Shown: piece by piece, positions 2,670 to 32,000 of the stretch
Layout: every line of letters begins with the position of its first letter
Numbering within the stretch: the first letter of the stretch is position 1
Source of the DNA: Bacteroidaceae bacterium
Lineage (GTDB): Bacteria > Bacteroidota > Bacteroidia > Bacteroidales > Bacteroidaceae
Assembly: GCA_017461345.1 (NCBI GenBank)
Contig: JAFTYP010000007.1
Span: 106,291 to 138,290, forward strand
Length of the DNA: 32,000 bases
Direction: 5' to 3'
The notes under the pieces: generated by a model
What the model was told of the DNA's origin: nothing
Database searches by the model: none
Seen by the model: only the letters and a program-made list of their open reading frames with translations
Translations under genes and position numbers: made by a program

Positions 2670-3452
2670 CTATTTAAAATAAACTTTTGCCTGACAAACA
2701 ACTTCTTCCTTTTGGCCAGTCGAATCGCCGAACTTGCGGACTTCAACGTCTGTTTCGTTGTCGTCAATGACTTGTGTATAGAAACTTAGTTTGTCGCCAA
2801 GATATGATTCTGCCTTATAGGCAATCTCGAAACGTGAAAGTTGTCTCTCCTCGAAGTTCTCACGTGGAAAGAGGTTGAGAATATGCTCTATATACTTTAT
2901 ACTATTGATATGTCCGTTGATGTCCACATCGCTGTAATAGGTGTCGATGGCACGAACGAACTGCGGATCGTTGAAACGAAAACGTCCGTGACCTTCGATG
3001 GGACAAATGTTCTTCTCTTCCGGGACGATATAACGGAGAATGTCTCCATCGTATAGTGTCAGCAAGTCGCATGGTTTGCGAGTCTCCAAGTCTATCATGG
3101 CCCATACACTTCTGGCATAACCAAGCACTGTGCCATCGGAGCGATGGATGGAGAAGTTACGATTGGTAAATAACTTCATAACACTCTCTACCCACGTTTT
3201 TACATCACAATGCTCGTATTGCCTGGGCATTTCTTGCATTTCGATGCAGAGACGAGAGAGTACCCATGTGTGTTGAGTCTCGTTGAGTGCGCCGATGCCC
3301 CAACCACGTTTCTGCGAGTGATTGCCGGCAGCATTGAGCAAGTGGTTGCCTAAAACTCCAAGAAAGATTTTACCTGTGAAGTCTACATGGAAAGGCTCTA
3401 CGAAGAAAGGATGTGAGTCGATATATTTGTCTGCTGTTTGTGTATTATCCAT
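2670..3452 (-). CDS. Acyl-[acyl-carrier-protein] thioesterase (FatA/B-like, tandem hotdog)
   Basis: Strong resemblance to Bacteroides acyl-ACP thioesterases (EPFHVDFTGK, LGNHLLNAAG, WVLSRLCIEMQEMP, YSDVDINGHINSIKYIEHIL). I prefer the ATG at 3452 (MDNTQTADKY). The track start at 3548 would overlap ilvN by 86 nt. Confidence 0.9.
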   Translation of the reverse strand: MDNTQTADKYIDSHPFFVEPFHVDFTGKIFLGVLGNHLLNAAGNHSQKRGWGIGALNETQHTWVLSRLCIEMQEMPRQYEHCDVKTWVESVMKLFTNRNFSIHRSDGTVLGYARSVWAMIDLETRKPCDLLTLYDGDILRYIVPEEKNICPIEGHGRFRFNDPQFVRAIDTYYSDVDINGHINSIKYIEHILNLFPRENFEERQLSRFEIAYKAESYLGDKLSFYTQVIDDNETDVEVRKFGDSTGQKEEVVCQAKVYFK

Positions 3453-3462
3453 TCTGTTCAAT

Positions 3463-4347
3463 TCAATGATTCGTTTTCTCTTCCTTAGAACAGGTGGGGG
3501 CTTCTCTTTCTTCTTCACGTTTTGCAATGTATGCGTCAAGTCGTTCAACGCACGACTTTGTTACTGCAATCCGTCCGGTACGTACAAACTGCAATACACA
3601 GCCAATTGTGTCGAGTTGTGTGAAGAGTTCTATTACATCTGTCGTTATTCCGGTATTCTCCACAATAGTATAAGTAGGATTAACCTCAACGATACGTGCA
3701 TCGAAACGACGGACAATACATGAAATTTCTTTATTGGCAAGCACCATTGGCGTGGAAAGTTTCAACAAAGAAGTTTCAAGAATGAAGATTTCGTCATCGA
3801 CGAAGCAGTTGGCTTGCAGCACATCGATTTTCTTTTCAATCTGCCTTGTAAGCATTTCTGCCATTTCCTGCTTGCAGTAACATGTAATCGTGTATTTATG
3901 AACACCCGGAGTGGAGGATGCACATACGTTAAGACTTTCAATGTTTACCTGCCTGCGGGTGAAGACGGCTGTAATCTGATTGAGAATACCAGCAAAGTTT
4001 TCTGAATATATAATGAGCGTGTATAGCGTCAATCCGTCATGACTGAGCAATGCACCCTCGCGACCAGGCACTGTGGGACGAGCGACAGCATTACGGCTGA
4101 ATGTCTCCTTCTGCATGCCTTGTGCATTGTCTTGAGCGAATGTTGCACGACGCTGACGTGCAAGGTTCTTCTCAAAACTGTCTCGTTCAACGGCTGCTGC
4201 AGCAAGAACAGCATCATTAAACTGCAGATCGACGTTCTTTGGTGAGTTTGTGCTCTGTGTCTCTTGAGTCATCTCAAGTTCATCACATTTGCCACAAGTG
4301 TTGCAATCGCCACATTCTGCGGCACCGAATTTATTATTTGTTTTCAT
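3463..4347 (-). CDS. ilvN: Acetolactate synthase small (regulatory) subunit with an unusual ~105-aa N-terminal extension
   Basis: The C-terminal ~185 aa is ACT/IlvN-like (LYTLIIYSENFAGILNQITAVFTRRQVNIESLNV). The ATG at 4347 lies 3 nt after the ilvB stop (TAAGCAATG). The extension carries CGDCNTCGKC. An alternative internal GTG/TTG start cannot be excluded. Confidence 0.85.
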   Translation of the reverse strand: MKTNNKFGAAECGDCNTCGKCDELEMTQETQSTNSPKNVDLQFNDAVLAAAAVERDSFEKNLARQRRATFAQDNAQGMQKETFSRNAVARPTVPGREGALLSHDGLTLYTLIIYSENFAGILNQITAVFTRRQVNIESLNVCASSTPGVHKYTITCYCKQEMAEMLTRQIEKKIDVLQANCFVDDEIFILETSLLKLSTPMVLANKEISCIVRRFDARIVEVNPTYTIVENTGITTDVIELFTQLDTIGCVLQFVRTGRIAVTKSCVERLDAYIAKREEEREAPTCSKEEKTNH

Positions 4348-9420: not shown

Positions 9421-9598
9421 CAAAAAATAACCTCCTTGCGGGAGGTTAAGAAAACACTCAAGAGAACTTCGGCAACTTCTGCAGAGAAGTTGCCCGACTT
9501 CTCTGCAGAAGTTTGTCAATTACTCTGGAGAAGTTTTAGAAGCCGACGAGGGGCTGGTTTTCACGCCTGCAGTCCACTTGGCAAAATGGACGCGTCCT
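9421..9598 (-). repeat. Intergenic repeat element, copy B (inverted relative to copy A)
   Basis: Its reverse complement aligns with 1228-1410. Central hairpin 9476-9511 has the same 14-bp arms and the same plus-strand loop ttgcccga. Terminal stem cctcc ttgcg ggagg (9431-9445) is followed on the minus strand by TTATTTTTTG. Confidence 0.8.
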
Positions 9599-9617
9599 TC
9601 GGGGCGAACGGACGCGT
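9581..9617 (-). terminator. Hairpin built from GGACGCGT palindromes; probable terminator of the lipid operon
   Basis: Arms acgcgtccttcg (9590-9601) / cgaacggacgcgt (9605-9617) with one bulge and loop ggg. On the minus strand it is followed by CCATTTTGCC. Lies 24 nt after the thioesterase stop. Confidence 0.5.
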
Positions 9618-9640
9618 GGTGTTGGAAACCGTTTTGGGAG

Positions 9641-10069
9641 TTATTGTTGTTTAAGCCACTTTTCTTTCCATGCCTTCACAAAGTCGGGCAGGTCCAGCAT
9701 CAAATCGCCGTTGGACTCGACAAACAACTGTGTGGTTTCTCCTTCGCAACAGAGTACGCCATCGCTCTCGCGGTAGATGCGGTATTTATAGTCGAGGCGT
9801 GCTCCGCGCTTGGGAACGAATGTAGTGTGAATAACTGCAACATCGCCCATCTGCAAGGATGCGTAGTGACGGGTGTGTACATCGTAGATGGGGGCATAAA
9901 TGCCTGTCTGTTGCATTACATCGTAACCCATGCCCGGATAATGACGGCCGAAGGATTCACGACCGTCTTCGAAATATACGATGTAATTCCCATGCCACAC
10001 TATGCGCATGGAGTCTATCTCGCTGAACTTTACTGGAACACGGCAAACATCTGTTATTTCCATAGGCAT
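9641..10069 (-). CDS. 4HBT/YbgC-family hotdog acyl thioesterase
   Basis: 142 aa with ATG at 10069. VKFSEIDSMRIVWHGNYIVYFEDGRE matches the 4HBT-type catalytic Asp / aromatic pattern. Confidence 0.8.
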   Translation of the reverse strand: MPMEITDVCRVPVKFSEIDSMRIVWHGNYIVYFEDGRESFGRHYPGMGYDVMQQTGIYAPIYDVHTRHYASLQMGDVAVIHTTFVPKRGARLDYKYRIYRESDGVLCCEGETTQLFVESNGDLMLDLPDFVKAWKEKWLKQQ

Positions 10070-10179
10070 GGGTTGTAACTTGAATGGTTATACGGTCTTG
10101 TTTAAGGTGACAAAATCTCTGTCTGCCCTGTTTCTCTTGAGTGGACAGACGGGTGGGGCGGATGTGTGTGTGGTGGGAA

Positions 10180-10914
10180 CTACGTATATAATCCTCCGTT
10201 GATGGAAATGACGTTGCCGGTAATATATCCTGCCTGTGGACTGCACAGGAAGGCTACACACTCTGCAACCTCCTCGGGTGTACCGAAACGGTTGGCAGGG
10301 ATGGTTTTCTTCAGTGCTGCTTCGTCGAGGCCTTCTACCATGTCTGTCTTGATGAAACCTGGTGCGATGGCATTGCAGGTGATGTTTTTCTTGGCCACTT
10401 CCTTAGCCAGAGCCTTGGTGGCAGCAATGAGTCCACCCTTGGCAGCAGAGTAGTTGGTCTGTCCCTGCATACCCATAATGCCACTTACGCTGGCCATATT
10501 GACGATGCGGCCGAACTTGTGGAACTGCATGGGCATGAGCAGAGGTTGGGTTACGTTGTAGAAGCCGTTGAGGCTCACGCCAAGTACGCTGATCCAATCT
10601 TCCTGTGGCATGAGAGACATGATGTTGTCCTTTCGTATGCCGGCATTGTTGACAAGAATCTCTATGTATTCGTCCTGGTCTGCATGAGCCTGCTGCCATG
10701 CCTCGATGGCAGAGCGGGTCTCTTCGGCATTGCTGACATCGAACTTCATCAGTTCGCCGTCGGAGCCTGCTTCGCGTACAAGGCGCAGCGTCTCTTCTGC
10801 TGCGGCGGTGTTGCCTGCAAAGTTGATAAGAACATTGTAGCCCATCTGAGCCAGTTTGACACATACGGCACGTCCGATGCCACGGCTGCCGCCTGTTACA
10901 AGTGCATACTTCAT
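10180..10914 (-). CDS. SDR 3-oxoacyl-ACP reductase (FabG-like ketoreductase)
   Basis: 244 aa. Contains TGGSRGIGRA (TGxxxGxG), NNAG, and the catalytic YSAAKGG (YxxxK). Confidence 0.9.
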   Translation of the reverse strand: MKYALVTGGSRGIGRAVCVKLAQMGYNVLINFAGNTAAAEETLRLVREAGSDGELMKFDVSNAEETRSAIEAWQQAHADQDEYIEILVNNAGIRKDNIMSLMPQEDWISVLGVSLNGFYNVTQPLLMPMQFHKFGRIVNMASVSGIMGMQGQTNYSAAKGGLIAATKALAKEVAKKNITCNAIAPGFIKTDMVEGLDEAALKKTIPANRFGTPEEVAECVAFLCSPQAGYITGNVISINGGLYT

Positions 10915-10942
10915 ATCTGGTTTAGTTATTGTAAAATGGTTG

Positions 10943-12361
10943 TTAGGGAATTGTACTGTTTTTTATCTCTTGACAAGTATAAGATGCTGTCATAGTGACG
11001 CCATGCAATCCATGCAGCATCAGGTTCTGCCCCGTCATGAACAGATTGGGAATCTGTGTCTTTGGAGAGACGATAGTCATCATGGGACTACTGAAGTCCT
11101 TGCGGAAGCCAAAAGCACTGCCTTCGGGTGTCATATTATAGTCCCTGTACGTCAGAGGTGTGCTCGACCACGTTTTGACTACCTTCTCGCCAAGACCGGG
11201 GATGGCCTTTTCTGCCAGAGCAATGCACTGCTCGGCAACCCGGGCTTTCATCTCCTCGTATGCCTTGGGGCGATGGAAGAGTTTGCTGCCCTCGTAGTCT
11301 TTGACCACTTCCCATAACATGGGAGTAAGGATGTCTATGTTTGTTACACTTTCTCCCTCCTCCGCTATCCTGGCACTCATCATGATGCCTTTGACGGTGA
11401 GACTTCTGTCGATTGCCATGTCCCAACAATCCGATGCTGCAAAAACAAACTTGTTGTGGTTGAAGTAGGGCAGGGAATCGCTCCTCAACTGTAGGTGCAG
11501 AGTGAAGATGCCAAAGGTGTTGGGTTGCATGCTCATACGCCGACGGAAGACTTTCTTCATTTGCGAACACTCTTCGACCAGGGAGCATGTAACGGCAGGG
11601 TGTGCATTGCTGACGAAGATGTCGGCTCCATACGACGTTCCGTCGGCACAGACGGCACAGACAATCCGTCCGTCCTTCTCCTTGAGGGCGACGACTTCCT
11701 TGTCTGTCAGCACCTCGCCGCCCAAAGCACGTATCTGCTCTGTCAGACAGGATACAAGACGATTGCCATCGGCAGCCAAACGCCAACTGCTTTCTATGAA
11801 CGGAGCAGTGCCATGAACATAGGTGAACAGAGGAAGTGTTTCTTTGCGCAACTCCATCTTGCATGTGGCTGGAGCAGAAAGTATCTGCAGAAGAAGAGGG
11901 TCGGAAATAATCGAAGTCAAGTATTCCCAGGCATTGGTCTTCTGCAACCAAAGTTCGTCGGTACAGTCAAGAAGTTCTCCATACAAGTCAAGGCCTTTCT
12001 CCTCGTTCGGGAAATAACGCTTCATGGCAGCAATGAAGCGTTTCTTGCCCTGTGGCCAGCAGAACTTCCGACCACCGACGTAAATCTCCTCGAAACAGTC
12101 TGCGTCCATCTGTCTCCACGGGAGAGTCATCAATCCCAGACTTTTAAAAGCATCATACAGTTGACCGCCTTCTGACAGTCCACCCACATAATGCAAGCCA
12201 GTGTCGTGTGCAAGTTTACCGCGACGAAAACTTTGCATACAGCCACCTGCCTGATGCTGACGTTCCAGGACAAGGACTTTTCTCCCCTCCATTGCCATCA
12301 TCAGAGCAACCTCAAGACCTCCGAGTCCGCTGCCTATAATAATAATGTCAGACTTTGTCAT
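10943..12361 (-). CDS. FAD-dependent oxidoreductase of the phytoene desaturase (CrtI) / RetSat-like family
   Basis: N-terminal DIIIIGSGLGGLEVALMMAMEGRKVLVLERQHQAGG (GxGxxG plus acidic residue plus GG). About 470 aa, typical for COG1233-type enzymes. The track start at 12364 is TTG; ATG at 12361 is preferred. Confidence 0.75.
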   Translation of the reverse strand: MTKSDIIIIGSGLGGLEVALMMAMEGRKVLVLERQHQAGGCMQSFRRGKLAHDTGLHYVGGLSEGGQLYDAFKSLGLMTLPWRQMDADCFEEIYVGGRKFCWPQGKKRFIAAMKRYFPNEEKGLDLYGELLDCTDELWLQKTNAWEYLTSIISDPLLLQILSAPATCKMELRKETLPLFTYVHGTAPFIESSWRLAADGNRLVSCLTEQIRALGGEVLTDKEVVALKEKDGRIVCAVCADGTSYGADIFVSNAHPAVTCSLVEECSQMKKVFRRRMSMQPNTFGIFTLHLQLRSDSLPYFNHNKFVFAASDCWDMAIDRSLTVKGIMMSARIAEEGESVTNIDILTPMLWEVVKDYEGSKLFHRPKAYEEMKARVAEQCIALAEKAIPGLGEKVVKTWSSTPLTYRDYNMTPEGSAFGFRKDFSSPMMTIVSPKTQIPNLFMTGQNLMLHGLHGVTMTASYTCQEIKNSTIP

Positions 12362-12478
12362 CAACTTATTTGTGTCTCATATTCGTCGACAAACAGATGG
12401 GGCTCTGTTGGCATAGCGTCATAAAACATTCATGAAGCCGAGCGAATCGAGTTAATGTGTTTCCAACGAATAGTCTTG

Positions 12479-12850
12479 TCATGCCTTATGCAAGAGACCT
12501 TTCAATGTCATATAAGTCTGTTTGTCGTCTGCAATGGAAGCCTGCACAGAAAACCCATCATCGGTAGGAGTAAGCGTCACTTGCACATCAACCTCGGGAC
12601 AGACGGTGGGAGTAGCCAGAGTAGTCAGACGGCATTGTTTGATTGCAGCGTATCGCAACTGCACGCCACACAACAGGATTGCACATTCCTTTATTGTTTC
12701 AATGTTGCAAACTCCCGGGCAGACAGGATCTTCAGGGAAATGTCCGTCATAGACATTACATTCTGGAAGTATTGCCACATGATACTTTGCACTGAGACCT
12801 TCGCCTCGTTCTTCGGACAATACTTTATAGAACTTGTTTTCTAATAGCAT
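12479..12850 (-). CDS. FabZ/FabA-like hotdog 3-hydroxyacyl-ACP dehydratase
   Basis: DGHFPEDPVCPGVCNIETIKE matches the FabZ active-site HFPxxPVxPGV motif. The track start at 12892 is TTG and overlaps the upstream gene; ATG at 12850 (MLLENKFY) is preferred. Confidence 0.75.
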   Translation of the reverse strand: MLLENKFYKVLSEERGEGLSAKYHVAILPECNVYDGHFPEDPVCPGVCNIETIKECAILLCGVQLRYAAIKQCRLTTLATPTVCPEVDVQVTLTPTDDGFSVQASIADDKQTYMTLKGLLHKA

Positions 12851-12875
12851 TATTATATATAATGTATTGTAATCT

Positions 12876-13310
12876 TCAATCCTCGCGTACAAAGATTTTC
12901 ATCTGTGTCTCTGCTATAATCTCTTCTCCGACAACAGTTGTGCCACTGATTATGGTAACGCCACCCACTGTCGCACCCATAACGATGCTCGTCTGCAATT
13001 CTTCGCCCAATCCTGGACGACGGTACAGACGGAAGTTCTTCACTTCCCCGATATATCCTACAGGAGGTTTCGTTGCCCCTTCGGCTACTGCACGATAGCC
13101 GGCAAAAGCAGATGCACATTGAGCAATATGTTCTATCACTCCAGGCTCTGCAATCTGTCCGTCTTCCTCGAGGAAGAAATTGTCTTCGCGAATCATCAAA
13201 CGACAGGAACACTCGTCCCCGTCAACCTTCAGCAACTCGTCCACCATCATGATGGGTGAGCGCTGTGGTATGAGTTCTTCAATCTTACTGATGGCTCTCG
13301 ATGTAGTCAT
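12876..13310 (-). CDS. Second hotdog-fold dehydratase (ApeI-like / FabA-like domain protein)
   Basis: 144 aa. N-terminal LIPQRSPIMMVDELL resembles the IPHRxPxLxVD motif of dehydratases in aryl-polyene-type loci. The ATG at 13310 overlaps the ACP gene by 26 nt. Confidence 0.65.
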   Translation of the reverse strand: MTTSRAISKIEELIPQRSPIMMVDELLKVDGDECSCRLMIREDNFFLEEDGQIAEPGVIEHIAQCASAFAGYRAVAEGATKPPVGYIGEVKNFRLYRRPGLGEELQTSIVMGATVGGVTIISGTTVVGEEIIAETQMKIFVRED

Positions 13311-13524
13311 ACAGGTCGTTGAATGTCTTTACACTTGGAAGGTCGGCAACAGGAATCTTAACCTTGAAGGTGTACTGAACAACAGCAACCAGGTCGACGA
13401 GACTCAAACTGTCCAACTGCAGTGTATCATAGATTACAGCATCGGGAGTTATGACTTCCTGTTCTACCTCAAACTCCTCTGAAAGTGTTTCAATAACCTT
13501 CTCAATAATTTCTTCTCTTGTCAT
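13285..13524 (-). CDS. Acyl carrier protein
   Basis: 79 aa. LQLDSLSLVDLV contains the DSL phosphopantetheine-attachment serine. The track start at 13530 is TTG; ATG at 13524 is preferred. Confidence 0.85.
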   Translation of the reverse strand: MTREEIIEKVIETLSEEFEVEQEVITPDAVIYDTLQLDSLSLVDLVAVVQYTFKVKIPVADLPSVKTFNDLYDYIESHQ

Positions 13525-13570
13525 AATCAATTCAAATTGGTTATAATGTTAATAATTAGTGTTTGTTTTA

Positions 13571-14791
13571 TTATAGGTTCTTTACGATAAGGGTGCTGTT
13601 TGTCCCGCCAAAGCCAAAACTGTTGCTCAGGAACATATCAAAATGTTTCTCTGTTGTTTCCGGGATGATATTCACGCATGCAGTCTCTTCGTCGGGCTCC
13701 TCGAAGTTAATGTTGCCGGCAATGAAGTCATTCTTCATCATCAGCATACTATAGATGCACTCGGCAGCACCTGCTGCCCACATCTCATGTCCCGTCTGTG
13801 ATTTGGTAGAGGTAACAGGGATTGCATAATCGCCGAATATTTGTTTGATGGCCATAGCCTCGCGTCCGTCGCCGGCATGAGTGCTGGTGGCATGGGCATT
13901 GAGATAACCAATTTCTGTAGGATTGATGCCTCCATTGCGAATGGCAAGTTCCAACGAACGAGCAGGACCTGCCACGTTGGGTGTGGAAATGTGATCGCCG
14001 TTACCACTGAAGCCCCAACCTACAATCTCGGCAAGAATGGGTGCGCCGCGCTTGACAGCATGTTCATAACTTTCCAGAATAATGGTAGCAGCACCACCAC
14101 CAGGAACCAGACCATCGCGATTCTTATCGAAGGGACGACTGGCTTTAGCAGGTTCATCTTCACGAGTGGAGAATGCCTGAATACCATCAAAACTTGCAAC
14201 ACAATACATGTTTGCCTCTTGGGCACCGCCAGTGATAATACAGTCGGACAAACCATTCTTGATGAGCAGATAGGCATTGCCTATTGCCAAAGAAGAACTT
14301 GCACATGCAGCACTGCTTGTGAGGTTGATGCCACGGAGGCGGAACAGACATGCTAGATTCATGGTTACGGTGCTGTTCATGCTTTGGAAAATGGCTCCAC
14401 TACCGCATGCACTGGTCTCCTTGAATTCGCGGAAACGGTCCAGGGCAACCATTGTGGCTTCGGCAACGCTATCGTTACCATAAATGATACCTACTTCGTG
14501 AGAATCAATATAATCCTGGTCCAGACGTGCATGCTCTAAAGCGTCTTTTGTTGCCATGTATGCATACTGTGCTTCTTCGGGCATAAACTGACGCATAGAA
14601 CGGCAAACTAACTTTTTCAAGTCGGGCTTTGGCACATCGGCACATAGTCCGCTGCGGAATCCCATATCTTTTCTTTCCTGAGAGAAAATGATACCGCTTT
14701 TCCCATCATACAGGTTCTGTCGTACTTCGTCCAATGTCTGGCCTAAGCACGACCAGATTCCCATACCTGTAATAACAACTCTATTTTCCAT
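13571..14791 (-). CDS. Beta-ketoacyl-ACP synthase (KAS I/II-type, elongating)
   Basis: 406 aa. Active-site Cys in SSAACASSSLAIG, His in NAHATSTHAGD and His in QTGHEMWAAGA (a C-H-H triad). C-terminal NSFGFGGTN. Confidence 0.9.
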   Translation of the reverse strand: MENRVVITGMGIWSCLGQTLDEVRQNLYDGKSGIIFSQERKDMGFRSGLCADVPKPDLKKLVCRSMRQFMPEEAQYAYMATKDALEHARLDQDYIDSHEVGIIYGNDSVAEATMVALDRFREFKETSACGSGAIFQSMNSTVTMNLACLFRLRGINLTSSAACASSSLAIGNAYLLIKNGLSDCIITGGAQEANMYCVASFDGIQAFSTREDEPAKASRPFDKNRDGLVPGGGAATIILESYEHAVKRGAPILAEIVGWGFSGNGDHISTPNVAGPARSLELAIRNGGINPTEIGYLNAHATSTHAGDGREAMAIKQIFGDYAIPVTSTKSQTGHEMWAAGAAECIYSMLMMKNDFIAGNINFEEPDEETACVNIIPETTEKHFDMFLSNSFGFGGTNSTLIVKNL

Positions 14792-14836
14792 AATGGTCTA
14801 ACAATTATGTGTCTAATTATATTTTTACTGCAATAC

Positions 14837-15970
14837 TTATCCAATCATCTTTCCGTAACATCGTCTGCGCTTCAGTGTCTCCGGATTCAGAGGCTTCCAC
14901 TGACTGAGTTCCTTGACATTGTCTTCCAGTTGTGGACCAGTTTCTGCATATTTGTAACCTTTCTTATTATAGATTGGAATGAGATCGTTAAAGATCAAAG
15001 CATTTACTCCCAAGCCTTGCATATCCGGACGGACTGCGATAAGCATCATGTTTACTGTATCCTCGTGTTTTATCTTCAGTGCCTTTAACATGTGCCACCA
15101 GCCAGTGGGGAAGAGTTTGCCTTTCGACTTTTGCAGCGCCCTGGACATACTTGCCATTGTGACGGCTGCTGCAACCAGTTCTCCTTTTTCGTTTTCTACC
15201 AAAGGAATCAAATCCATGTCTGCAACAGGAAGATACATCTTCAGGAAGTAATCTACTTGATTGGGGGTGAAAGAACTATATCCAAACAGAGGAGCATAAG
15301 CCTGATTCATTAACTCGAAAACTCTACGTCCTTCGCCATTGAAAGCCTCCTGCAATGTTACTTTTCGGACTTTCAGGCCATACATCTCGCTGCTCAATTT
15401 GGCTACACGCGCATATCTTAAAGGAATCTCGCTTGGAATCTCTACTCTTATTTGAAGCCAATCTACAATCTTGGAATACCCATGGGATTCCATGTGTTTG
15501 GGATAATAGGGATAGTTGTAGATGTCTATCATGGACCCCAAGCGGTCAAAATCCTCAACGAGCATGCCTTCTTTGTCGAAATCAGTGATACCCAACGGTC
15601 CTTGTATCTCTGTCATGCCTCGCTCTTTGCCCCACTTTGCTACTGTATCGAGCAGAGCCTTGCTCACATCAAGGTCATCGATAAAATCTATGTAACCAAA
15701 GCGAACAATGGAAGTGTTCCACTTCTTGTTTGCTCTTGAATTTATAATACCGGCTATTCGACCTACAACCTCACCATCCTTTTCTGCGATGAAAGCCTGA
15801 ACTTCGGTGAATTTCAGGCCATGATTCTTTTCGGGATTAAAACTGTCACGAACATCATTTGCCATCTCTGGAACATACTGTTCATTACCGTTATACAAAT
15901 TAAGAGGGAAATTGATAAACTTTTTCAACTCTTTCTTTGTAGACACTTTTTTTATACAGACATTTTCCAT
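14837..15970 (-). CDS. Two-lobed GNAT-fold acyltransferase-like protein
   Basis: 377 aa. GNAT motif A-like VRPDMQGLGVNALI near the C-terminus. N-terminal lobe with EKDGEVVGRIAGIINSRANKKWN and RFGYIDFIDD. The acceptor and donor substrates cannot be read from the sequence. Confidence 0.6.
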   Translation of the reverse strand: MENVCIKKVSTKKELKKFINFPLNLYNGNEQYVPEMANDVRDSFNPEKNHGLKFTEVQAFIAEKDGEVVGRIAGIINSRANKKWNTSIVRFGYIDFIDDLDVSKALLDTVAKWGKERGMTEIQGPLGITDFDKEGMLVEDFDRLGSMIDIYNYPYYPKHMESHGYSKIVDWLQIRVEIPSEIPLRYARVAKLSSEMYGLKVRKVTLQEAFNGEGRRVFELMNQAYAPLFGYSSFTPNQVDYFLKMYLPVADMDLIPLVENEKGELVAAAVTMASMSRALQKSKGKLFPTGWWHMLKALKIKHEDTVNMMLIAVRPDMQGLGVNALIFNDLIPIYNKKGYKYAETGPQLEDNVKELSQWKPLNPETLKRRRCYGKMIG

Positions 15971-16018
15971 CAGATTTTATATTTCTTGCACGAGATACAA
16001 ATTCTGTATATATGCGGA

Positions 16019-16026
16019 CAAAATTA
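16019..16026 (-). promoter_or_regulatory. Candidate -7 promoter element (TAATTTTG) of the lipid operon
   Basis: Minus strand reads TAATTTTG, 49 nt upstream of the ATG at 15970, in an AT-rich ~400-bp intergenic region. Confidence 0.45.
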
Positions 16027-16189
16027 CAAAATTTCGGATATGTTTGAATGTGATTTTAATTACGAATACAAAGATACGAAAAGGTAGCCGAATTCGGAGT
16101 AAATTACTAACAAAATAACCTGTTGCGAGAGATATCGAATAATATAAACGACAAGTTGAACAAGCCCATTCGTCTACTTGCCTCAACGG

Positions 16190-16217
16190 ACGCGTCCATT
16201 TGATAAAATGGACGCGT
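16190..16217. repeat. GGACGCGT-palindrome hairpin, related to 9590-9617
   Basis: Perfect 12-bp arms acgcgtccattt (16190-16201) / aaatggacgcgt (16206-16217), loop gata. Shares aaaatggacgcgt and ggacgcgtggtgt with the 9583-9622 region. Confidence 0.75.
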
Positions 16218-25529: not shown

Positions 25530-27011
25530 ATGGCAAAAGAATTGGATTTCCTGACCAAACGTAGTGAAGACTACAGCAAATGGTATAATGAACTGGTTGT
25601 AAAGGCCAACCTCGCCGAACAGAGCGACGTGCGCGGCTGTATGGTTATCAAGCCTTACGGCTACGCAATCTGGGAGAAGATGCAGCGCACATTGGACGAT
25701 ATGTTCAAGGAGACAGGTGTGCAGAATGCCTATTTCCCATTGCTCATCCCGAAGAGTTTCCTCTCTCGCGAGGCTGAACACGTGGAAGGCTTTGCCAAAG
25801 AGTGTGCCGTTGTGACACACTATCGCCTCAAGACCAATGAGACAAACGATGGCGTGGTTGTCGACCCTGCAGCACGACTGGAGGAAGAACTCATCATTCG
25901 TCCTACTTCGGAAACCATCATCTGGAATACTTTCAAAAACTGGATACAGTCTTATCGCGACCTTCCTTTGCTGGTCAACCAGTGGTGCAACGTAATGCGT
26001 TGGGAGATGCGTACGCGTTTGTTCCTTCGCACCAGCGAATTCCTCTGGCAAGAAGGTCATACGGCGCATGCAACTCGCGAGGAAGCAGAAGAACGCGCAC
26101 AGCAGATGCTCAAGGTTTACGCAAAATTTGCAGAAGAATACATGGCTGTCCCGGTAGTACAAGGCGTGAAGAGCGAAACAGAACGCTTTGCCGGTGCACT
26201 CGACACCTATACCATCGAGGCCATGATGCAGGACGGTAAAGCATTGCAAAGCGGCACAAGCCATTTCCTTGGACAGAACTTCGGCAAGGCATTCGACGTA
26301 CAGTTCCTTAATAAAGAAAACAAACCCGAATATGCATGGGCAACGTCTTGGGGCGTCAGCACACGACTCATGGGCGCGCTCGTCATGACACACAGCGACG
26401 ATAACGGCCTCGTTCTGCCTCCCGCACTTGCCCCAATCCAGGTGGTTATCATTCCCATTGGCGGCAAACCCGAACAGGTTGCAGCCGTCGATGCAGCCGT
26501 TGCTCCTATTGTCGATGAACTCAAGAAGAAGGGCATCAGCGTGAAGTATGATAACGCTGACAACAAACGTCCGGGTTTCAAGTTCGCAGATTACGAACTC
26601 AAGGGCGTTCCCGTTCGTCTTGTGCTTGGCGCACGTGACCTGGAGAATGGAACTGTGGAAGTAATGCGTCGCGATACACTCGAGAAGGAGACACGTCCCC
26701 TCGAGGGCATTGTTGCATATGTAGAGCAACTCCTCTCCGATATTCAACAAAATATATTCGCAAAGGCAAAGGCATTCCGCGACGCCCATATCTATGAATG
26801 CGACGACTACGAAGAGTTCAAGCAGCGCGTTAAGGACGGCGGTTTCTTCCTTTGCCATTGGGACGGCACAGCCGAGACCGAGGCAAAGATTAAGGAAGAC
26901 ACGCAGGCCACCATCCGTTGTGTGCCGTTTGGTGTAGAACAGACACCAGGCGTGGATATGGTCAGCGGCAAACCCAGTAAGGCTCGTGTCCTTATTGCCA
27001 GAAGTTACTAA
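25530..27011 (+). CDS. proS: Prolyl-tRNA synthetase (archaeal/eukaryote-like type)
   Basis: 493 aa. N-terminus [38 protein letters not shown] and class II motifs. C-terminal ...ARSY is typical of this ProRS type. Confidence 0.95.
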
Positions 27012-28296
27012 TATCTCTTCCCTCAACTCCTCTCCCGATGTGGGGGAGGAGAGGCAGAGAGAAAGTCTTTCCTCAATAGGAAAGGCTTGGTGTCTTACTC
27101 TCTTTGTTGCGGAAGAAATTCCTGCTACGATTGTTATCTATGTGGCTTTGCTGATGTTCCTCCAGTTCGGAATGTCGTTGGCAGAAGCCACATTTTTTTC
27201 AGCCTTGCTCTTTGTGCCCTGGGCGTTGAAGTCTTACTTCCGCTCTTGGGTGGAGCGTATTGGGCAGATACGACTGTTGTTGCATGCTGTCGAGATGTTG
27301 CTTTGCGGTGCCCTCGTCCTTTTAGGCTACTGCTGTAACAAGGGAGCCCTGCCTGTTTTCTACTCTTTATTCAGCATCAGTCTGCTGTGTGCCATACATG
27401 GCCTGGTGTCACAAACTTGTTGCGAACGGACGATACATCCCCTTTATAGACGTTTCCTTACGCCTGTGGGGCAGTTATGTTCGCAAATGACAATCGTGTT
27501 TACCTATGGCGCTTTCATTTTTCTTATCGGCATTCTGCAAATATATTCCCGCAACATTCGCTATTCGTGGCAGACGGGTTGCTACGTGGCAGCAGGCGTT
27601 CTGTTGCTGTTCACTCTGTTTCATCTTGTGATCCTGACAATGTCGAACGACGGTCCTTCGGTAGCAACAAGAAGATGTCGCAAGGAATCTCTCCTTACTC
27701 GTGATGATTTTTGGCGTGGTGCTTCTCTTCTCTTTTTACTTCTTTTGCCACAGGGACTGATGTTCTACGCGCGCGTATTATATTTATATGATGTACATTT
27801 CAATGGCGGTCTGCAATGCACCATACAGGAGATCGGCTTCGCTCAGGGAACGGTAGGCGTTATTGCTTTCAGCATTGGCCTGCTCCTCGGTCGTAGGCTC
27901 GTAAGTAAAACCACTCTTCGAGGCAAAAGTCATGGCGGAGGAATTTTCTTTTGGCTTATGGCTCTCTCCCTCGCTCTGTCTCCATTAGTCTATCTGACTA
28001 TGACCGCCTTCCCGCCACATCATCTGTTACATTTGAGCCTGTGCACTGGTTTGGCTCAACTTTTATTCGGCTTTGGGTTAAGTGCCTGTCGTTTTCCGCT
28101 TTGCGACATTTCCGAAGTACGTTATGACACGATGCTCAATGTGCTTCGTGTCCCTCCCTTTGCTGCCACCATGCTTATGCCTATGGCAGTGAGCGGCTGG
28201 CTTGTTACGCAACTGGGCTACGCCAACTTCTTCCTCTTCAACACAGTTTGTGCTTTCTTTTGTTTGTTAGGCATTTTTATTTTGCGTCGACCTTAG
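26986..28296 (+). CDS. Divergent AmpG-like MFS-type polytopic membrane protein
   Basis: About 12 hydrophobic segments. [29 protein letters not shown] and [15 protein letters not shown] line up loosely with AmpG-family motifs as I recall them (EGLPY, LPWxxKxxWxPxVD, HDIAxDG). There is no in-frame ATG near the 5' end: the track start at 26986 is GTG, and alternatives are TTG 26995 and GTG 27040. It overlaps proS by up to 26 nt. Confidence 0.5.
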
Positions 28297-28432
28297 TCAC
28301 CCAAATTCTAAGAATAGGTTTTCATAACTTGTCTTGCCGTAGAAATACAACCATCTATTTTCTCCCAAACGAATAGGGAAATCCCTCCGACACTTTAGGG
28401 GAAATCACCTGCAAATGCTCACGACAATGCCG

Positions 28433-28440
28433 TACCTTTG
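28433..28440 (+). promoter_or_regulatory. Candidate -7 promoter element (TACCTTTG) of the His-rich protein gene
   Basis: Plus strand reads TACCTTTG, 43 nt upstream of the ATG at 28483. Confidence 0.45.
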
Positions 28441-28482
28441 CAGTAGAAACAAAAAAGAGAAAATGTTTAACCCTAAAAAACA

Positions 28483-28830
28483 ATGGTTATGAAAAAGATG
28501 ATTTACCTCGCCGCATTTGCTATCATGATGGCAATGGGCAACATGGATGCTAACGCAAAGGCTCACGCAAAGCATAACGATAAGGGTAGAGTGGAAATGC
28601 CTGGCAATGTAGGGCACAAGGTTTATGCAGGCCATCGCAATCATAACGCTAAGAGCCACGAGCGCAGAATGGCGGAGGAACGTCGTCGCAGGGAAGAGAT
28701 GCGTCGTAGAAATGCTCACCACCATCATCACACACATCACTGTAATGTTGTTGCCTGCAAAGGCAGTGCTGTGGCTGGAATAGCAGCAGGTGTGGCTGTT
28801 GCAACCATCATCGGAGCACTTGTCAATTAG
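28483..28830 (+). CDS. Small His/Arg-rich protein with signal peptide and C-terminal glycine-zipper hydrophobic helix
   Basis: 115 aa, with possible starts at 28483, 28489 or 28498. Signal-like MKKMIYLAAFAIMMAMG. Many His residues in the central region, including HHHHHTHH. An RRRREEMRRR block. C-terminal GSAVAGIAAGVAVATIIGALVN. Bracketed by a promoter motif and a strong terminator. Confidence 0.6.
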   Translation: MVMKKMIYLAAFAIMMAMGNMDANAKAHAKHNDKGRVEMPGNVGHKVYAGHRNHNAKSHERRMAEERRRREEMRRRNAHHHHHTHHCNVVACKGSAVAGIAAGVAVATIIGALVN

Positions 28831-28853
28831 GAATTGTTTATACGAAAAATATA

Positions 28854-28887
28854 AATGGGGTGCAAACATAATTGTTTGCACCCCATT
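28854..28887. terminator. Bidirectional rho-independent terminator between convergent genes
   Basis: Perfect 14-bp stem aatggggtgcaaac (28854-28867) / gtttgcaccccatt (28874-28887), loop ataatt. T-rich tracts on both sides: gttgtt on the plus strand, ttatattttt on the minus strand. Confidence 0.8.
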
Positions 28888-30134: not shown

Positions 30135-31346
30135 TTAGAGTTTATGTCCCATTCTTGTTTTTTTCGTTTCAAGATAAGAGCGATTGTATTTGTTGGGCTC
30201 GATAACGATGGGAATGTTTTCGACGATGGTCAGTCCGTAACTTTCCAGTCCGACACGTTTGACGGGGTTGTTGGTGATAAGACGAATTTTGCCGACTCCC
30301 ATTTCTCGAAGAATCTGTGCGCCTACGCCATATTCGCGTTCGTCGGGTCGGAAGCCGAGATGAATGTTGGCATCTACGGTGTCGTCGCCTTCCTCTTGGA
30401 GTTTGTAGGCAGCAATTTTGTTCATCAGTCCGATGCCACGTCCTTCTTGGCTGAGGTAAACAATGATGCCTTTGCCTTCTTTTTCTATCATTCGCATGGA
30501 TTCGTGTAATTGCTCGCCACAATCGCATCGCTGGCTACCGAAGATGTCGCCAGTCATACAACTGGAATGCATCCTGACCAGCACTGGTTCGTCTTCTGTC
30601 CACTCGCCTTTGTAGAGGACAACATGTTCCAGTCCGTTGCTTTTCTGACGGAACGGGATTATGTGAAAGTGACCGTCTGCTGTAGGCATGTCTGCTTCTA
30701 CGCCTTTCTCTACGAGCGACTCTTGTTGGAGTCGATATGCTATCAGGTCACGTATGCTAATGATTTTCAATCCGTGCTCACGAGCCACTTCTTTGAGTTG
30801 TGGCATACGTGCCATCGTTCCGTCTTCGTTTAATATTTCAATGAGAGCGGCTGCTGGTTGAAGGCCAGAAAGACGTGCAAGGTCGATGGCTGCTTCTGTG
30901 TGGCCTGCTCTGCGGAGAACCCCTTTATCTTGAGCATAAAGAGGGTTTATGTGTCCAGGGCGACCAAAGTCGGAGGGTTTGCGATTTGGGTCGGCAAGGG
31001 CACGGATGGTTTCGGCACGGTCGTGGGTGCTTACGCCTGTTGTGCAACCATCAAGGAGGTCGACCGTAACGGTAAATGGTGTGCCAAGCATACTGGTGTT
31101 GTCTGCCACTTGATGTTCAAGTTCCAGTTCTGCTGCTCGGCTCATGGTAATTGGTGCGCAGAGCACGCCTCTGCCGTTCTTCAGCATAAAGTTTACCTTT
31201 TCGGGGGTAATCATTTCGGCTGCGGTGATGAAGTCGCCTTCGTTTTCTCGGTCTTCGTCGTCGACCACGATGACGAATTTGCCTTGACGGAAATCGTCGA
31301 GAGCGTCTTCAATGGTGCTTAGTACCTTTTCGTTATTGTTGTCCAT
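30135..31346 (-). CDS. ribBA: Bifunctional 3,4-dihydroxy-2-butanone-4-phosphate synthase / GTP cyclohydrolase II
   Basis: 403 aa. RibB half ([23 protein letters not shown]) followed by RibA half ([27 protein letters not shown]). Confidence 0.95.
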
Positions 31347-32000
31347 ATCCTTTCTTTATGATTCTTTCGGAAATCAGTGTGTTGATATTTTGAATTTTAT
31401 GCATATCGAGTCTGAGTCTTAGCCTGTATCGCCAGATGCGCAGGTAGAAGAAGAGTCCTATCGGGAAAATGATGCCGACGGTCATGTTCAGTCGTTTGTT
31501 ACTGAATGGACGGGTGTGCGCGCTGGGATTTATGATGGGGTAGTCGTTAATGTACATGAGCAGTACGTTGTCTCGACTGTTGTGCAGTTCTTCTATTAGT
31601 CCTTCCAGGCGTTGGCTAAGGTTGGCTGCATTTTTGTCTTGGCCGGGGCGGAAGAAAATGTCAATGTAGTTTGGTATGCGTCGCAGGTGCATTGACATCC
31701 TGCATTTTGTGCAGAAGTCTGTCAGTTCGTCGAGCCTTTGTGGCAGTGTGGTGTAGTCCGGGTCGGTAATGATGACTTCTTTTCGGTTTAACTTGCGACT
31801 TGGACGAAGTCCAAATAGTTGCATAAAGAAATTGCGATAGCCTTCGATGTTGAAGACCACGCTGTCGCTGTTTGCTTTGTATGTAAGGAAGATGCCGGTG
31901 GCGAGCAGTACGAAACTGCTTAGCCATGTTCCGCTGCTTACGGTCCATGCATCTACTTTCGCATTGTTTTCGCCTGCCTGGTCAACGATGTAATAGAAGA
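31333..32000 (-). CDS. Hypothetical membrane protein, C-terminal part (5' end outside window)
   Basis: The frame stays open to base 32000 ([20 protein letters not shown]... precedes the GTG listed at 31860). Two hydrophobic helices ([16 protein letters not shown] and [15 protein letters not shown]) flank a ~130-aa soluble region. Its stop overlaps the ribBA start by 14 nt. I do not recognise a family. Confidence 0.4.

Follow-up and report, generated by a model that had tools for sequence, protein, structure and literature searches.

In this study, we analysed a 32,000-nt stretch of DNA (hereafter, the window) from an uncultured gut Bacteroidales bacterium, which carries eight co-directional genes on the minus strand between positions 9641 and 15970. 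As judged from the open reading frame (ORF) listing and from direct reading of the sequence, these genes encode, in transcription order, a GNAT acyltransferase, a beta-ketoacyl-ACP synthase (KS), an acyl carrier protein (ACP), two hotdog proteins of the dehydratase type (DH1 and DH2), a FAD-dependent oxidoreductase (the flavoenzyme), a 3-ketoacyl-ACP reductase (KR) and a thioesterase (TE). A preliminary description of the region, made from the sequence alone, had reported eight tightly packed genes, and all of its coordinates and gap sizes were reproduced exactly (junctions of 45, 46, -26, 25, 117, 28 and 110 nt). With no gap exceeding 117 nt, one overlap, promoter-like motifs only 5' of the first gene and a hairpin after the last, the layout indicates that the eight genes are one real and intact operon (Table 1).

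Table 1. Features of the eight-gene operon and positions in the window that correspond to the transport genes of related clusters
Feature	Position	Strand	Remarks
Tandem-GNAT acyltransferase	14837..15970	-	377 aa; Acetyltransf_1 in N-terminal half, motif A C-terminal
Elongating beta-ketoacyl-ACP synthase (KS)	13571..14791	-	406 aa; FabB-like, Cys-His-His triad complete
Acyl carrier protein (ACP)	13285..13524	-	79 aa; ATG start, DSL serine at residue 38
Hotdog protein DH1	12876..13310	-	144 aa; ApeP-like, Glu kept, catalytic His absent
Hotdog dehydratase DH2	12479..12850	-	123 aa; ATG start, ApeI/FabZ-like, catalytic His (GHFP)
FAD-dependent oxidoreductase (flavoenzyme)	10943..12361	-	472 aa; ATG start, CrtI/CrtD/PDS fold (AlphaFold 2 model)
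3-Ketoacyl-ACP reductase (KR)	10180..10914	-	244 aa; FlxB/ApeQ type
Thioesterase (TE)	9641..10069	-	142 aa; 4HBT fold (YbgC/FadM-like), nearest ApeK
Promoter-like motif TAATTTTG	16019..16026	-	Bacteroidetes-type -7; 49 nt upstream of GNAT start codon
Second TAnnTTTG, TATCTTTG	16069..16076	-	Motif scan
3' hairpin, likely operon terminator	9590..9617	-	23 nt past TE stop codon; short U-run after
Second hairpin, arms CACGCGTCC...GGACGCGT, likely AKR-gene terminator	16190..16217	-	Upstream of promoter region; copy of the palindromic element seen in the 3' hairpin
MMPL site	12372-12476		DNA alignment with L088
DUF5686 site	10916-10962		DNA alignment with L088
LolA-like gene site	10065-10183		DNA alignment with L088

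The motif TAnnTTTG occurs on the minus strand of region 9600-16100 only at the two positions listed in Table 1 and in none of the internal gaps. The first of them, TAATTTTG, is present where the preliminary description had placed a promoter. However, TAnnTTTG is not enriched across the window (23 occurrences versus 19 expected), and for this reason TAATTTTG can be described only as consistent with a promoter. The previously noted 3' hairpin is also present and stable by folding energy (about -17 kcal/mol, z = -2.7), and is followed by CCAUUUUG. A consensus scan for internal terminators gave no signal above chance within the operon, and an Rfam scan of the window detected no RNA family. The 26-nt overlap between the ACP and DH1 genes appears credible, because homology to FabZ begins as early as residue 7 of DH1, no alternative start codon exists ahead of the conserved LIPQRxPxxMVD motif, and the same overlap is found in the NCBI gene calls of two relatives; a metagenome gene caller chose a shorter version of DH1 (124 aa).

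To place the operon proteins in families, we used Pfam and NCBIfam profiles with their own cut-offs and BLASTP comparison with the Ape and Fab proteins of Escherichia coli. All of the catalytic motifs checked are intact except for the absent catalytic His of DH1. Residues Cys163, His300, Lys330, His335 and Phe394 of the KS correspond to C163, H298, K328, H333 and F392 of FabB, confirming the previously proposed elongating KS with an intact C-H-H triad. Among the E. coli proteins, FabB is nearest to this KS (41% identity, 295 bits), ahead of FabF (36%), ApeR (35%) and ApeO (31% over 262 aa); ApeC gives no BLASTP match. It scores below every NCBIfam FabB and FabF cut-off (374.7 versus 630 for FabB and 345.8 versus 493.75 for FabF), and its pocket retains Met138 and Phe201 of FabB, the aryl-stacking Tyr of ApeR not being present. 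The DSL serine ascribed to the operon's own ACP was verified, and the ACP scores 54 versus the AcpP cut-off of 65.

The KR, which had been described as FabG-like, carries SDR motifs (TGGSRGIG, NNAG and YSAAK) and passes one FabG equivalog (301 versus a cut-off of 273); however, it is closer to FlxB and ApeQ, scoring higher against the NF053542 FlxB_rubin_SDR equivalog (387.8 bits versus a cut-off of 340) and being 46% identical to ApeQ versus 39% to FabG. The TE is a 4HBT thioesterase, as anticipated; it is nearest to ApeK (27% identity, E ~3e-12), and the N-terminal Asp is present (ID at residue 18).

Regarding the two different hotdog dehydratases announced by the preliminary description, two distinct proteins are indeed encoded and DH2 has the catalytic His, but DH1 has only the Glu. 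In an alignment with E. coli FabZ, FabA, ApeP and ApeI, DH1 and ApeP keep the Glu (IEHIAQ in DH1) and have no catalytic His, whereas DH2, like ApeI, retains the His (GHFP in DH2). This split is kept in 19 DH1 and 10 DH2 homologues. Because the His and the Glu are divided between the two proteins, the pattern implies a putative DH1:DH2 heterodimer with one composite active site. The best BLASTP match of DH1 is ApeP, and DH2 matches ApeI and FabZ about equally. Both proteins are far below the NCBIfam FabZ equivalog cut-offs (33.5 versus 113 for DH1 and 26 versus 155 for DH2), and DH2 is above the Pfam FabA-like cut-off (28.4 versus 23). Precomputed Pfam ApeP-like and ApeI-like labels were dropped after re-scoring below Pfam's own cut-offs, and the ApeP/ApeI assignment is therefore based on two other lines, BLASTP against the proteins of E. 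coli and the distribution of the catalytic residues.

The flavoenzyme, earlier termed CrtI-like, resembles the CrtI family in its predicted fold. The AlphaFold 2 model (pLDDT 89.8) has 4REP (TM 0.77), 4DGK (CrtI) and 5MOG (PDS), all carotenoid desaturases, as its best neighbours in the PDB, whereas the sequence scores 69.8 bits against the TIGR02734 crtI_fam cut-off of 238.1. The window is devoid of carotenoid genes.

Across the whole 32 kb, Pfam assignments and tblastn bore out the absences listed in the preliminary description (enoyl reductase, malonyl-CoA:ACP transacylase (MCAT), chain-length factor (CLF), aryl-starter enzymes and LolA/MMPL-type export genes). Thus, no genes for FabD/MCAT, FabH, a FabI/FabK-type enoyl reductase, a second KS or CLF, an ammonia-lyase, an AMP-ligase, LPLAT, glycosyltransferase, LolA or MMPL were found in the window, and a tblastn search with the KS detected no further copy there. 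AMP-binding and ammonia-lyase genes are also absent from the 11-gene relatives described below, and FlxA, FlxY and DarA/DarB were found neither in the window nor in the flanks of the relatives.

To find related clusters, we scanned species-representative genomes with a GNAT profile built from a 12-sequence alignment, which yielded at least 593 matches, and examined the best 80 loci. Among these, about 28 Prevotella-like species contain the GNAT gene directly followed by the KS and ACP genes, with the flavoenzyme gene further on; the GNAT-headed layout is thus the norm in these species and not peculiar to the window. The other members (DH1, DH2, KR, TE, MMPL, a DUF5686 protein and a LolA-like protein) vary between species. 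In the closest lineages, 11 genes are arranged in the order GNAT-KS-ACP-DH1-DH2-MMPL-flavoenzyme-DUF5686-KR-LolA-like-TE. This form is carried by L088, by L006/L086 and by an abundant sister lineage (L089-L091; GNAT 89-90% identical); the 11-gene cluster family as a whole is common in Prevotella-like bacteria. The GNATs and KSs of the closest relatives are 78-90% and 96-97% identical, respectively, to those of the window, and the same eight genes stand in the same order. The additional genes encode an MMPL/HpnN-like RND pump (~825 aa), a CarboxypepD_reg/DUF5686 protein (~900 aa) and a LolA-like protein (~194 aa).

The synteny comparison therefore runs counter to the suggestion that the window holds a minimal stand-alone version pointing to a distinct product: the window lacks exactly three transport genes of an otherwise identical gene order. 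The DNA alignment between the window and L088 is collinear, with breakpoints on gene borders (Table 1), and the breakpoints at the MMPL and LolA-like sites identify the 117- and 110-nt gaps as the seats of the relatives' transport genes. No remnants or paralogues of the MMPL, LolA-like or DUF5686 genes are present in the 32-kb window, and MMPL-less versions also occur in ~10 other species among the best 80 loci. The simplest reading of the window copy is that of a relocated derivative that lost its exporters, not of a primordial minimal cluster. A search for an 'empty site' (AKR beside LRR/ilvD without the operon) with the exact AKR protein returned only contigs with the same arrangement.

Several observations concern the surroundings and composition of these clusters. 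A divergent AraC regulator gene lies 5' of the cluster in both the GNAT-headed form and a second form described below (L088, 2160-3044; L089, 7786-8670; L101, 2122-3033). In L088 and L089-L091, the cluster is located behind the AraC regulator and a Bat operon, and BatA-D (aerotolerance) and PAP2 phosphatase genes precede it in L088 and L089; none of the AraC regulator, BatA-D and PAP2 phosphatase genes is found beside the operon in the window. The CarboxypepD_reg and DUF5686 protein, presumably located in the outer membrane, is a frequent member of the cluster (e.g. L006, 17497-20193); in the library searched, DUF5686 is named by a single paper. Eight species (L014, L018, L020, L022, L023, L029, L031 and L033) contain DH1 alone, with no detectable DH2, and therefore DH1 may have a role other than that of a half-dehydratase; seven other species have neither DH. 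The hairpins at 9590-9617 and 16190-16217 bracket the operon and have common arms (ACACCACGCGTCC ... GGACGCGT), of which the 9-mer occurs twice in the window (0.16 expected). Among 93 loci, this pattern is confined to contigs of the same species, and the paired hairpins could represent a palindromic repeat or terminator element specific to the species, or mark the borders of the relocated segment.

The remaining genes appear to be under strong purifying selection (dN/dS ≤0.15; dS saturated). In comparison with L089, L088 and L006, dN/dS values are 0.007 for KS, 0.00-0.03 for ACP, 0.03 for KR, 0.02 for TE, 0.07-0.15 for DH1, 0.09-0.13 for DH2 and 0.07 for the flavoenzyme; in every gene measured dS has reached saturation, and selection after the loss of the transporters is thus not separable in these values. 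Identity of 96-97% in the KS at saturated synonymous sites is unusually strong constraint for an enzyme of an accessory pathway. Recombination was considered as the source of the mosaic identities (97% in the KS versus 68% in the flavoenzyme to L006) and rejected, because dS is saturated everywhere and differing constraint per gene accounts for them. With 6-7 contigs, the species is only rarely represented in the collection. The GNAT protein is identical between contigs of independent samples, as is the KS in the three contigs that reach far enough.

The GNAT matches Acetyltransf_1 (25 bits versus a cut-off of 20.7), as do 28 of 30 family members, and contains a C-terminal CoA/pantetheine-binding motif A (Q/R-x-x-G-x-G/A; QGLGVNA at residue 318) in a region that the profile matches with that of motif A in RimI. 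The protein belongs to a very large family (4977 clusters at 50% identity), and sequence and profile searches with it against the PDB found no solved relative but only generic GNAT motif-A matches, so that a loader or N-acyltransferase role gains no support from this source. The AlphaFold model of the GNAT, built from a shallow alignment, has a pLDDT of 57, which is too low for fold comparison. In a neighbour-joining tree, the cluster-linked GNATs form a single clade, and they stay with the cluster across at least three genomic contexts. A second architecture found in L011 and L101 is headed by a PlsC acyltransferase (PlsC acyltransferase-KS-ACP-DH1-TE-DH2-MMPL-flavoenzyme-KR-LolA), and there a 58%-identical GNAT gene adjoins the cluster on the opposite strand. 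This conservation of neighbourhood makes a functional link between this GNAT clade and the cluster very probable; the GNAT may offload the chain to an amine, prime the ACP or modify the acceptor. A gene of the CDP-alcohol phosphatidyltransferase family (338 aa) adjoins the cluster in three species (L011, 11131-12147; L028, 4502-5485; L014, 20899-21129), and its start lies within the 3' end of the GNAT gene in L011. This recurrent neighbour hints at a phospholipid-type acceptor or final product.

We infer every chemical step, and the product itself, from the observed gene content, motifs, family relations, synteny and selection. The operon probably represents a dedicated ACP-dependent pathway of the aryl-polyene/flexirubin superfamily whose product is not bulk fatty acid but a specialised acyl lipid with an unsaturated, perhaps short polyenoic, chain, a reading to which we give a probability of roughly 0.55. 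The preliminary description had likewise placed this dedicated type II fatty-acid synthase (FAS)/polyketide synthase-like operon nearest to the catalytic core of aryl polyene (APE) and flexirubin loci, and this placement was upheld by the FlxB/ApeQ-type KR, the ApeK-like TE and the ApeP/ApeI-like split of DH1 and DH2. In the proposed pathway, the ACP would be primed by an acyl group from primary metabolism or by the tandem GNAT, and malonyl units would be loaded onto it by the housekeeping FabD. The chain would be extended by the homodimeric FabB/ApeR-like KS and reduced at the 3-keto group by the FlxB/ApeQ-type KR. Dehydration would be performed by the DH1:DH2 heterodimer, DH2 contributing the His and DH1 the Glu, as suggested by the ApeP and ApeI sequences of E. 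coli. Double bonds would persist, because the operon has no FabI/FabK-type enoyl reductase, and the flavoenzyme may desaturate, isomerise or saturate the chain as a tailoring step. The chain would then be released by the 4HBT thioesterase or transferred by the GNAT; transfer to an amine acceptor is possible, and the GNAT could equally prime the ACP. In the relatives, the product would travel to the outer membrane via the MMPL pump, the LolA-like carrier and the DUF5686 outer-membrane protein. Because the three transport genes have been lost, the product of the window copy would stay inside the cell or in the inner membrane, or would depend on transport genes encoded elsewhere.

Several points weigh against this interpretation. 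The defining features of APE clusters, a KS-CLF pair and an aryl-starter loader, are missing, and because the KS moreover keeps Met138 of FabB instead of the Tyr of ApeR, an aryl polyene product is unlikely. Polyene formation by the operon is putative, and a simpler unsaturated fatty acyl chain is a serious alternative as its product. In Pfam, the ApeP-like and ApeI-like scores stay under the gathering cut-offs (13.9/27 and 17.4/28.5, respectively). Several species contain only GNAT, KS, ACP and flavoenzyme genes, without KR or DH, and in the core chemistry the flavoenzyme may therefore matter more than a KR/DH polyene cycle does. In addition, GNAT homologues of ~50% identity in Bacteroides, Alloprevotella and Mediterranea adjoin parE, coaD and Ctp protease genes with no cluster nearby, and the loss of all three transport genes could mean that the pathway is on its way out in this lineage. 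We also tentatively consider a wider possibility, that the invariant GNAT-KS-ACP-CrtI-fold core marks out a class of its own among the envelope lipids of Bacteroidales. In this class, a non-aryl chain would be built on the cluster's own ACP, desaturated or isomerised by the flavoenzyme at the stage of an acyl-ACP or acyl-lipid, primed or offloaded by the GNAT and delivered to the outer membrane by the MMPL, LolA-like and DUF5686 proteins. If this is true, the window would represent a natural exporter-less variant that accumulates an intermediate or a free acid.

Two alternative explanations concern the state and the extent of the operon. After the loss of the transporters and relocation, the eight genes could be a decaying remnant that is inactive or heading towards pseudogenes. 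The absence of exactly those three genes that the closest relatives possess, together with that of the upstream AraC regulator, the lack of remnants or paralogues of the transport genes in 32 kb and the rarity of the species in the collection all fit such decay. However, none of the eight ORFs is truncated and their catalytic motifs are intact, dN/dS does not exceed 0.15 for any measurable gene (with dS saturated), short forms without MMPL recur and persist in ~10 other species, and contigs from independent samples agree in the GNAT and, for three of them, in the KS; we regard decay as quite improbable. The GNAT, in turn, could be a mere neighbour, namely a broadly conserved Bacteroidales acetyltransferase next to a seven-gene biosynthetic unit from KS to TE. 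This explanation would account for the large size of the family, for the homologues beside parE, coaD and Ctp protease, which have no KS cluster within 10 kb, and for the failure of the PDB sequence and profile searches to find any similarity to known GNATs that use acyl-ACP or load polyketide synthases. It is nevertheless unlikely, given that the GNAT gene lies directly upstream of the KS gene in essentially every co-directional cluster locus of ~28 species in differing contexts, mostly at distances of less than ~100 nt and up to ~160 nt, and that promoter-like motifs are found only 5' of the GNAT gene and not between GNAT and KS. The single clade formed by the cluster-linked GNATs and the 58%-identical GNAT that still stands beside the PlsC-headed clusters, on the opposite strand, point in the same direction.

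The other two alternatives assign the operon to fatty-acid synthesis. In an auxiliary branch for unsaturated fatty acids, the flavoenzyme would dehydrogenate or isomerise an acyl-ACP in a FabX/FabA-like manner and the KS would extend it, giving an anaerobic monounsaturated membrane fatty acid. Flavin-dependent desaturation of acyl-ACP has a precedent in FabX of Helicobacter pylori, and such a branch agrees with a KS that is nearer to E. coli FabB than to ApeR or ApeO, keeps the Met138/Phe201 pocket and is extremely constrained, with a DH2 that exceeds the FabA-like cut-off, and with the invariance of the KS, ACP and flavoenzyme core across species. We consider it rather improbable, since the MMPL, LolA-like and outer-membrane proteins of the relatives fit the export of a specialised envelope lipid and not phospholipid acyl chains, the KR, TE and DH proteins are closer to ApeQ, ApeK and ApeP than to FabG and FabZ, the distribution of the cluster among Bacteroidales is patchy, and no dedicated thioesterase or ACP is needed to feed PlsX/PlsY/PlsC. 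That the operon is the primary fatty-acid synthase of the organism can be virtually dismissed. KS, ACP, KR, DH and TE functions are all present, the KR passes one FabG equivalog and the KS is highly conserved; however, FabD, FabH and an enoyl reductase are lacking in the window, DH1 is without the catalytic His, most Bacteroidales have no such cluster beside the GNAT gene, several species dispense with the KR and DH genes, and the related genome L042 contains a distinct FabF-like KS (34% identical). We rejected this candidate on the basis of the KS, ACP and DH scores, which are well under the FabF/FabB, AcpP and FabZ cut-offs, and of the variable presence and composition of the cluster among related species, in agreement with the earlier view that the operon is not a housekeeping system.

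The genes flanking the operon are unrelated to it, as the preliminary description had found and the gene assignments in the window bear out: PFOR, GH76 and AKR genes lie on one side, and an LRR protein gene and an ilv operon on the other. The latter (ilvD-ilvB-ilvN-[TE]-ilvC) includes a FatA/B-type acyl-ACP thioesterase gene (2670-3548, minus strand) with N- and C-terminal Pfam Acyl-ACP_TE domains, so that an enzyme releasing fatty-acid chains is encoded together with the genes for branched-chain amino-acid synthesis. Three ORFs of the window (26986-28296 on the plus strand, and 28405-28881 and 31333-31860 on the minus strand; 436, 158 and 175 aa, respectively) have no Pfam match at E ≤0.001.

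A literature search found no characterised product for this cluster type or for DUF5686, but only survey-level 'arylpolyene' calls. Genome-mining surveys class such clusters as 'aryl polyene' in Prevotella and Bacteroides from the gut, the rumen and the mouth, and some surveys treat them as flexirubin producers. The gene content, however, argues for a different and undescribed product, because there is no aryl loader or KS-CLF pair, the KS pocket is of the FabB type, and a CrtI-fold enzyme and a tandem GNAT are conserved. Such a product would belong to the outer-membrane lipids of host-associated bacteria that are very abundant. The two natural forms, with 8 and 11 genes, separate synthesis from export and thus offer a contrast for finding the product and the functions of the DUF5686 protein and the GNAT; the GNAT family to be assigned comprises about 5000 clusters at 50% identity, with no solved structure found in the PDB. 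The question at the level of the family, namely which lipid is made and what the GNAT, the CrtI-fold enzyme and the DUF5686 protein contribute, outweighs the interest of the window copy itself.

Among known systems, the flexirubin cluster of Chitinophaga pinensis (flxA-flxY) and Flavobacterium johnsoniae (PMC3992019) shares with the window a KR that meets the FlxB equivalog. This FlxB model is the extent of the comparison at the sequence level, the other Flx proteins being compared by description. FlxV belongs to the same annotation class as the flavoenzyme (FlxV by its annotation, the CrtI-like fold of the window protein by its model), and FlxQ and FlxU represent LolA- and MMPL-type export genes like those of the window's relatives. 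In contrast, the tyrosine ammonia-lyase FlxA, the CoA ligase FlxY, the extra condensing enzymes FlxI/L/N/O, the second ACP, and the methyltransferase, halogenase, glycosyltransferase and DarA/DarB resorcinol genes of flexirubin clusters are missing from the window operon, whereas the window adds the tandem GNAT and the relatives add the DUF5686 protein.

The APE clusters (apeA-apeR) of E. coli CFT073, Xenorhabdus and Acinetobacter (PMC8253772, PMC8358021) offer several points of contact, with ApeQ, ApeK, ApeP, ApeI and ApeR having counterparts in the window by BLASTP and ApeM being 20% identical to the MMPL protein of the relatives. ApeP and ApeI divide the catalytic His and Glu in the same manner as DH1 and DH2, and ApeR, like the KS of the window, is of the FabB-like homodimer type. 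However, the identities are low (20-46%), and the ApeO-ApeC KS-CLF pair, the aryl loader ApeH, ApeD, ApeJ and ApeB have no counterpart in the window, which encodes only one ACP. ApeR has a Tyr at the aryl-stacking position, where the KS of the window, being nearer to FabB than to ApeR, has a Met. The CrtI-fold flavoenzyme and the GNAT are additional to the APE gene set.

The housekeeping type II FAS of E. coli (FabB/FabA/FabZ/FabG) has the same folds and catalytic residues, and its KS has the same triad, lysine and gating Phe. Unlike this system, the window has no FabD, FabH or FabI, the dehydratase is split into complementary halves, and the genes are clustered with those for a CrtI-fold enzyme and a TE and, in the relatives, also with lipid export genes. 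Enzymes of the CrtI family are known to act on non-carotenoid lipids, as exemplified by UfaD, a fatty-acyl desaturase in the synthesis of furan fatty acids, and by RetSat, a saturase of vertebrates. The modelled flavoenzyme has the CrtI/CrtD/PDS fold in common with this class. In granadaene biosynthesis, a polyene is made on a dedicated ACP by a type II FAS-like system without an enoyl reductase, joined to an amine by an N-acyltransferase and then exported. The window system would share this logic only if the GNAT offloads the chain; the likeness is a functional analogy with no sequence comparison behind it, and the type of acyltransferase and the transporters differ. Amide polyene pathways of this type, represented by the cyl operon of Streptococcus agalactiae, are mentioned in PMC8253772.

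An arylpolyene-type biosynthetic gene cluster of Bacteroides has been reported to be syntenic with the flexirubin cluster, and antiSMASH surveys routinely call aryl-polyene clusters in Prevotella; such calls have also been published for Bacteroides. The KS-CLF pair, aryl-starter activation and, in the window, export are absent, and the locus should not be filed as an APE, flexirubin or housekeeping FAS locus. What is new here is an exporter-less, GNAT-headed and aryl-less form of a known cluster type.

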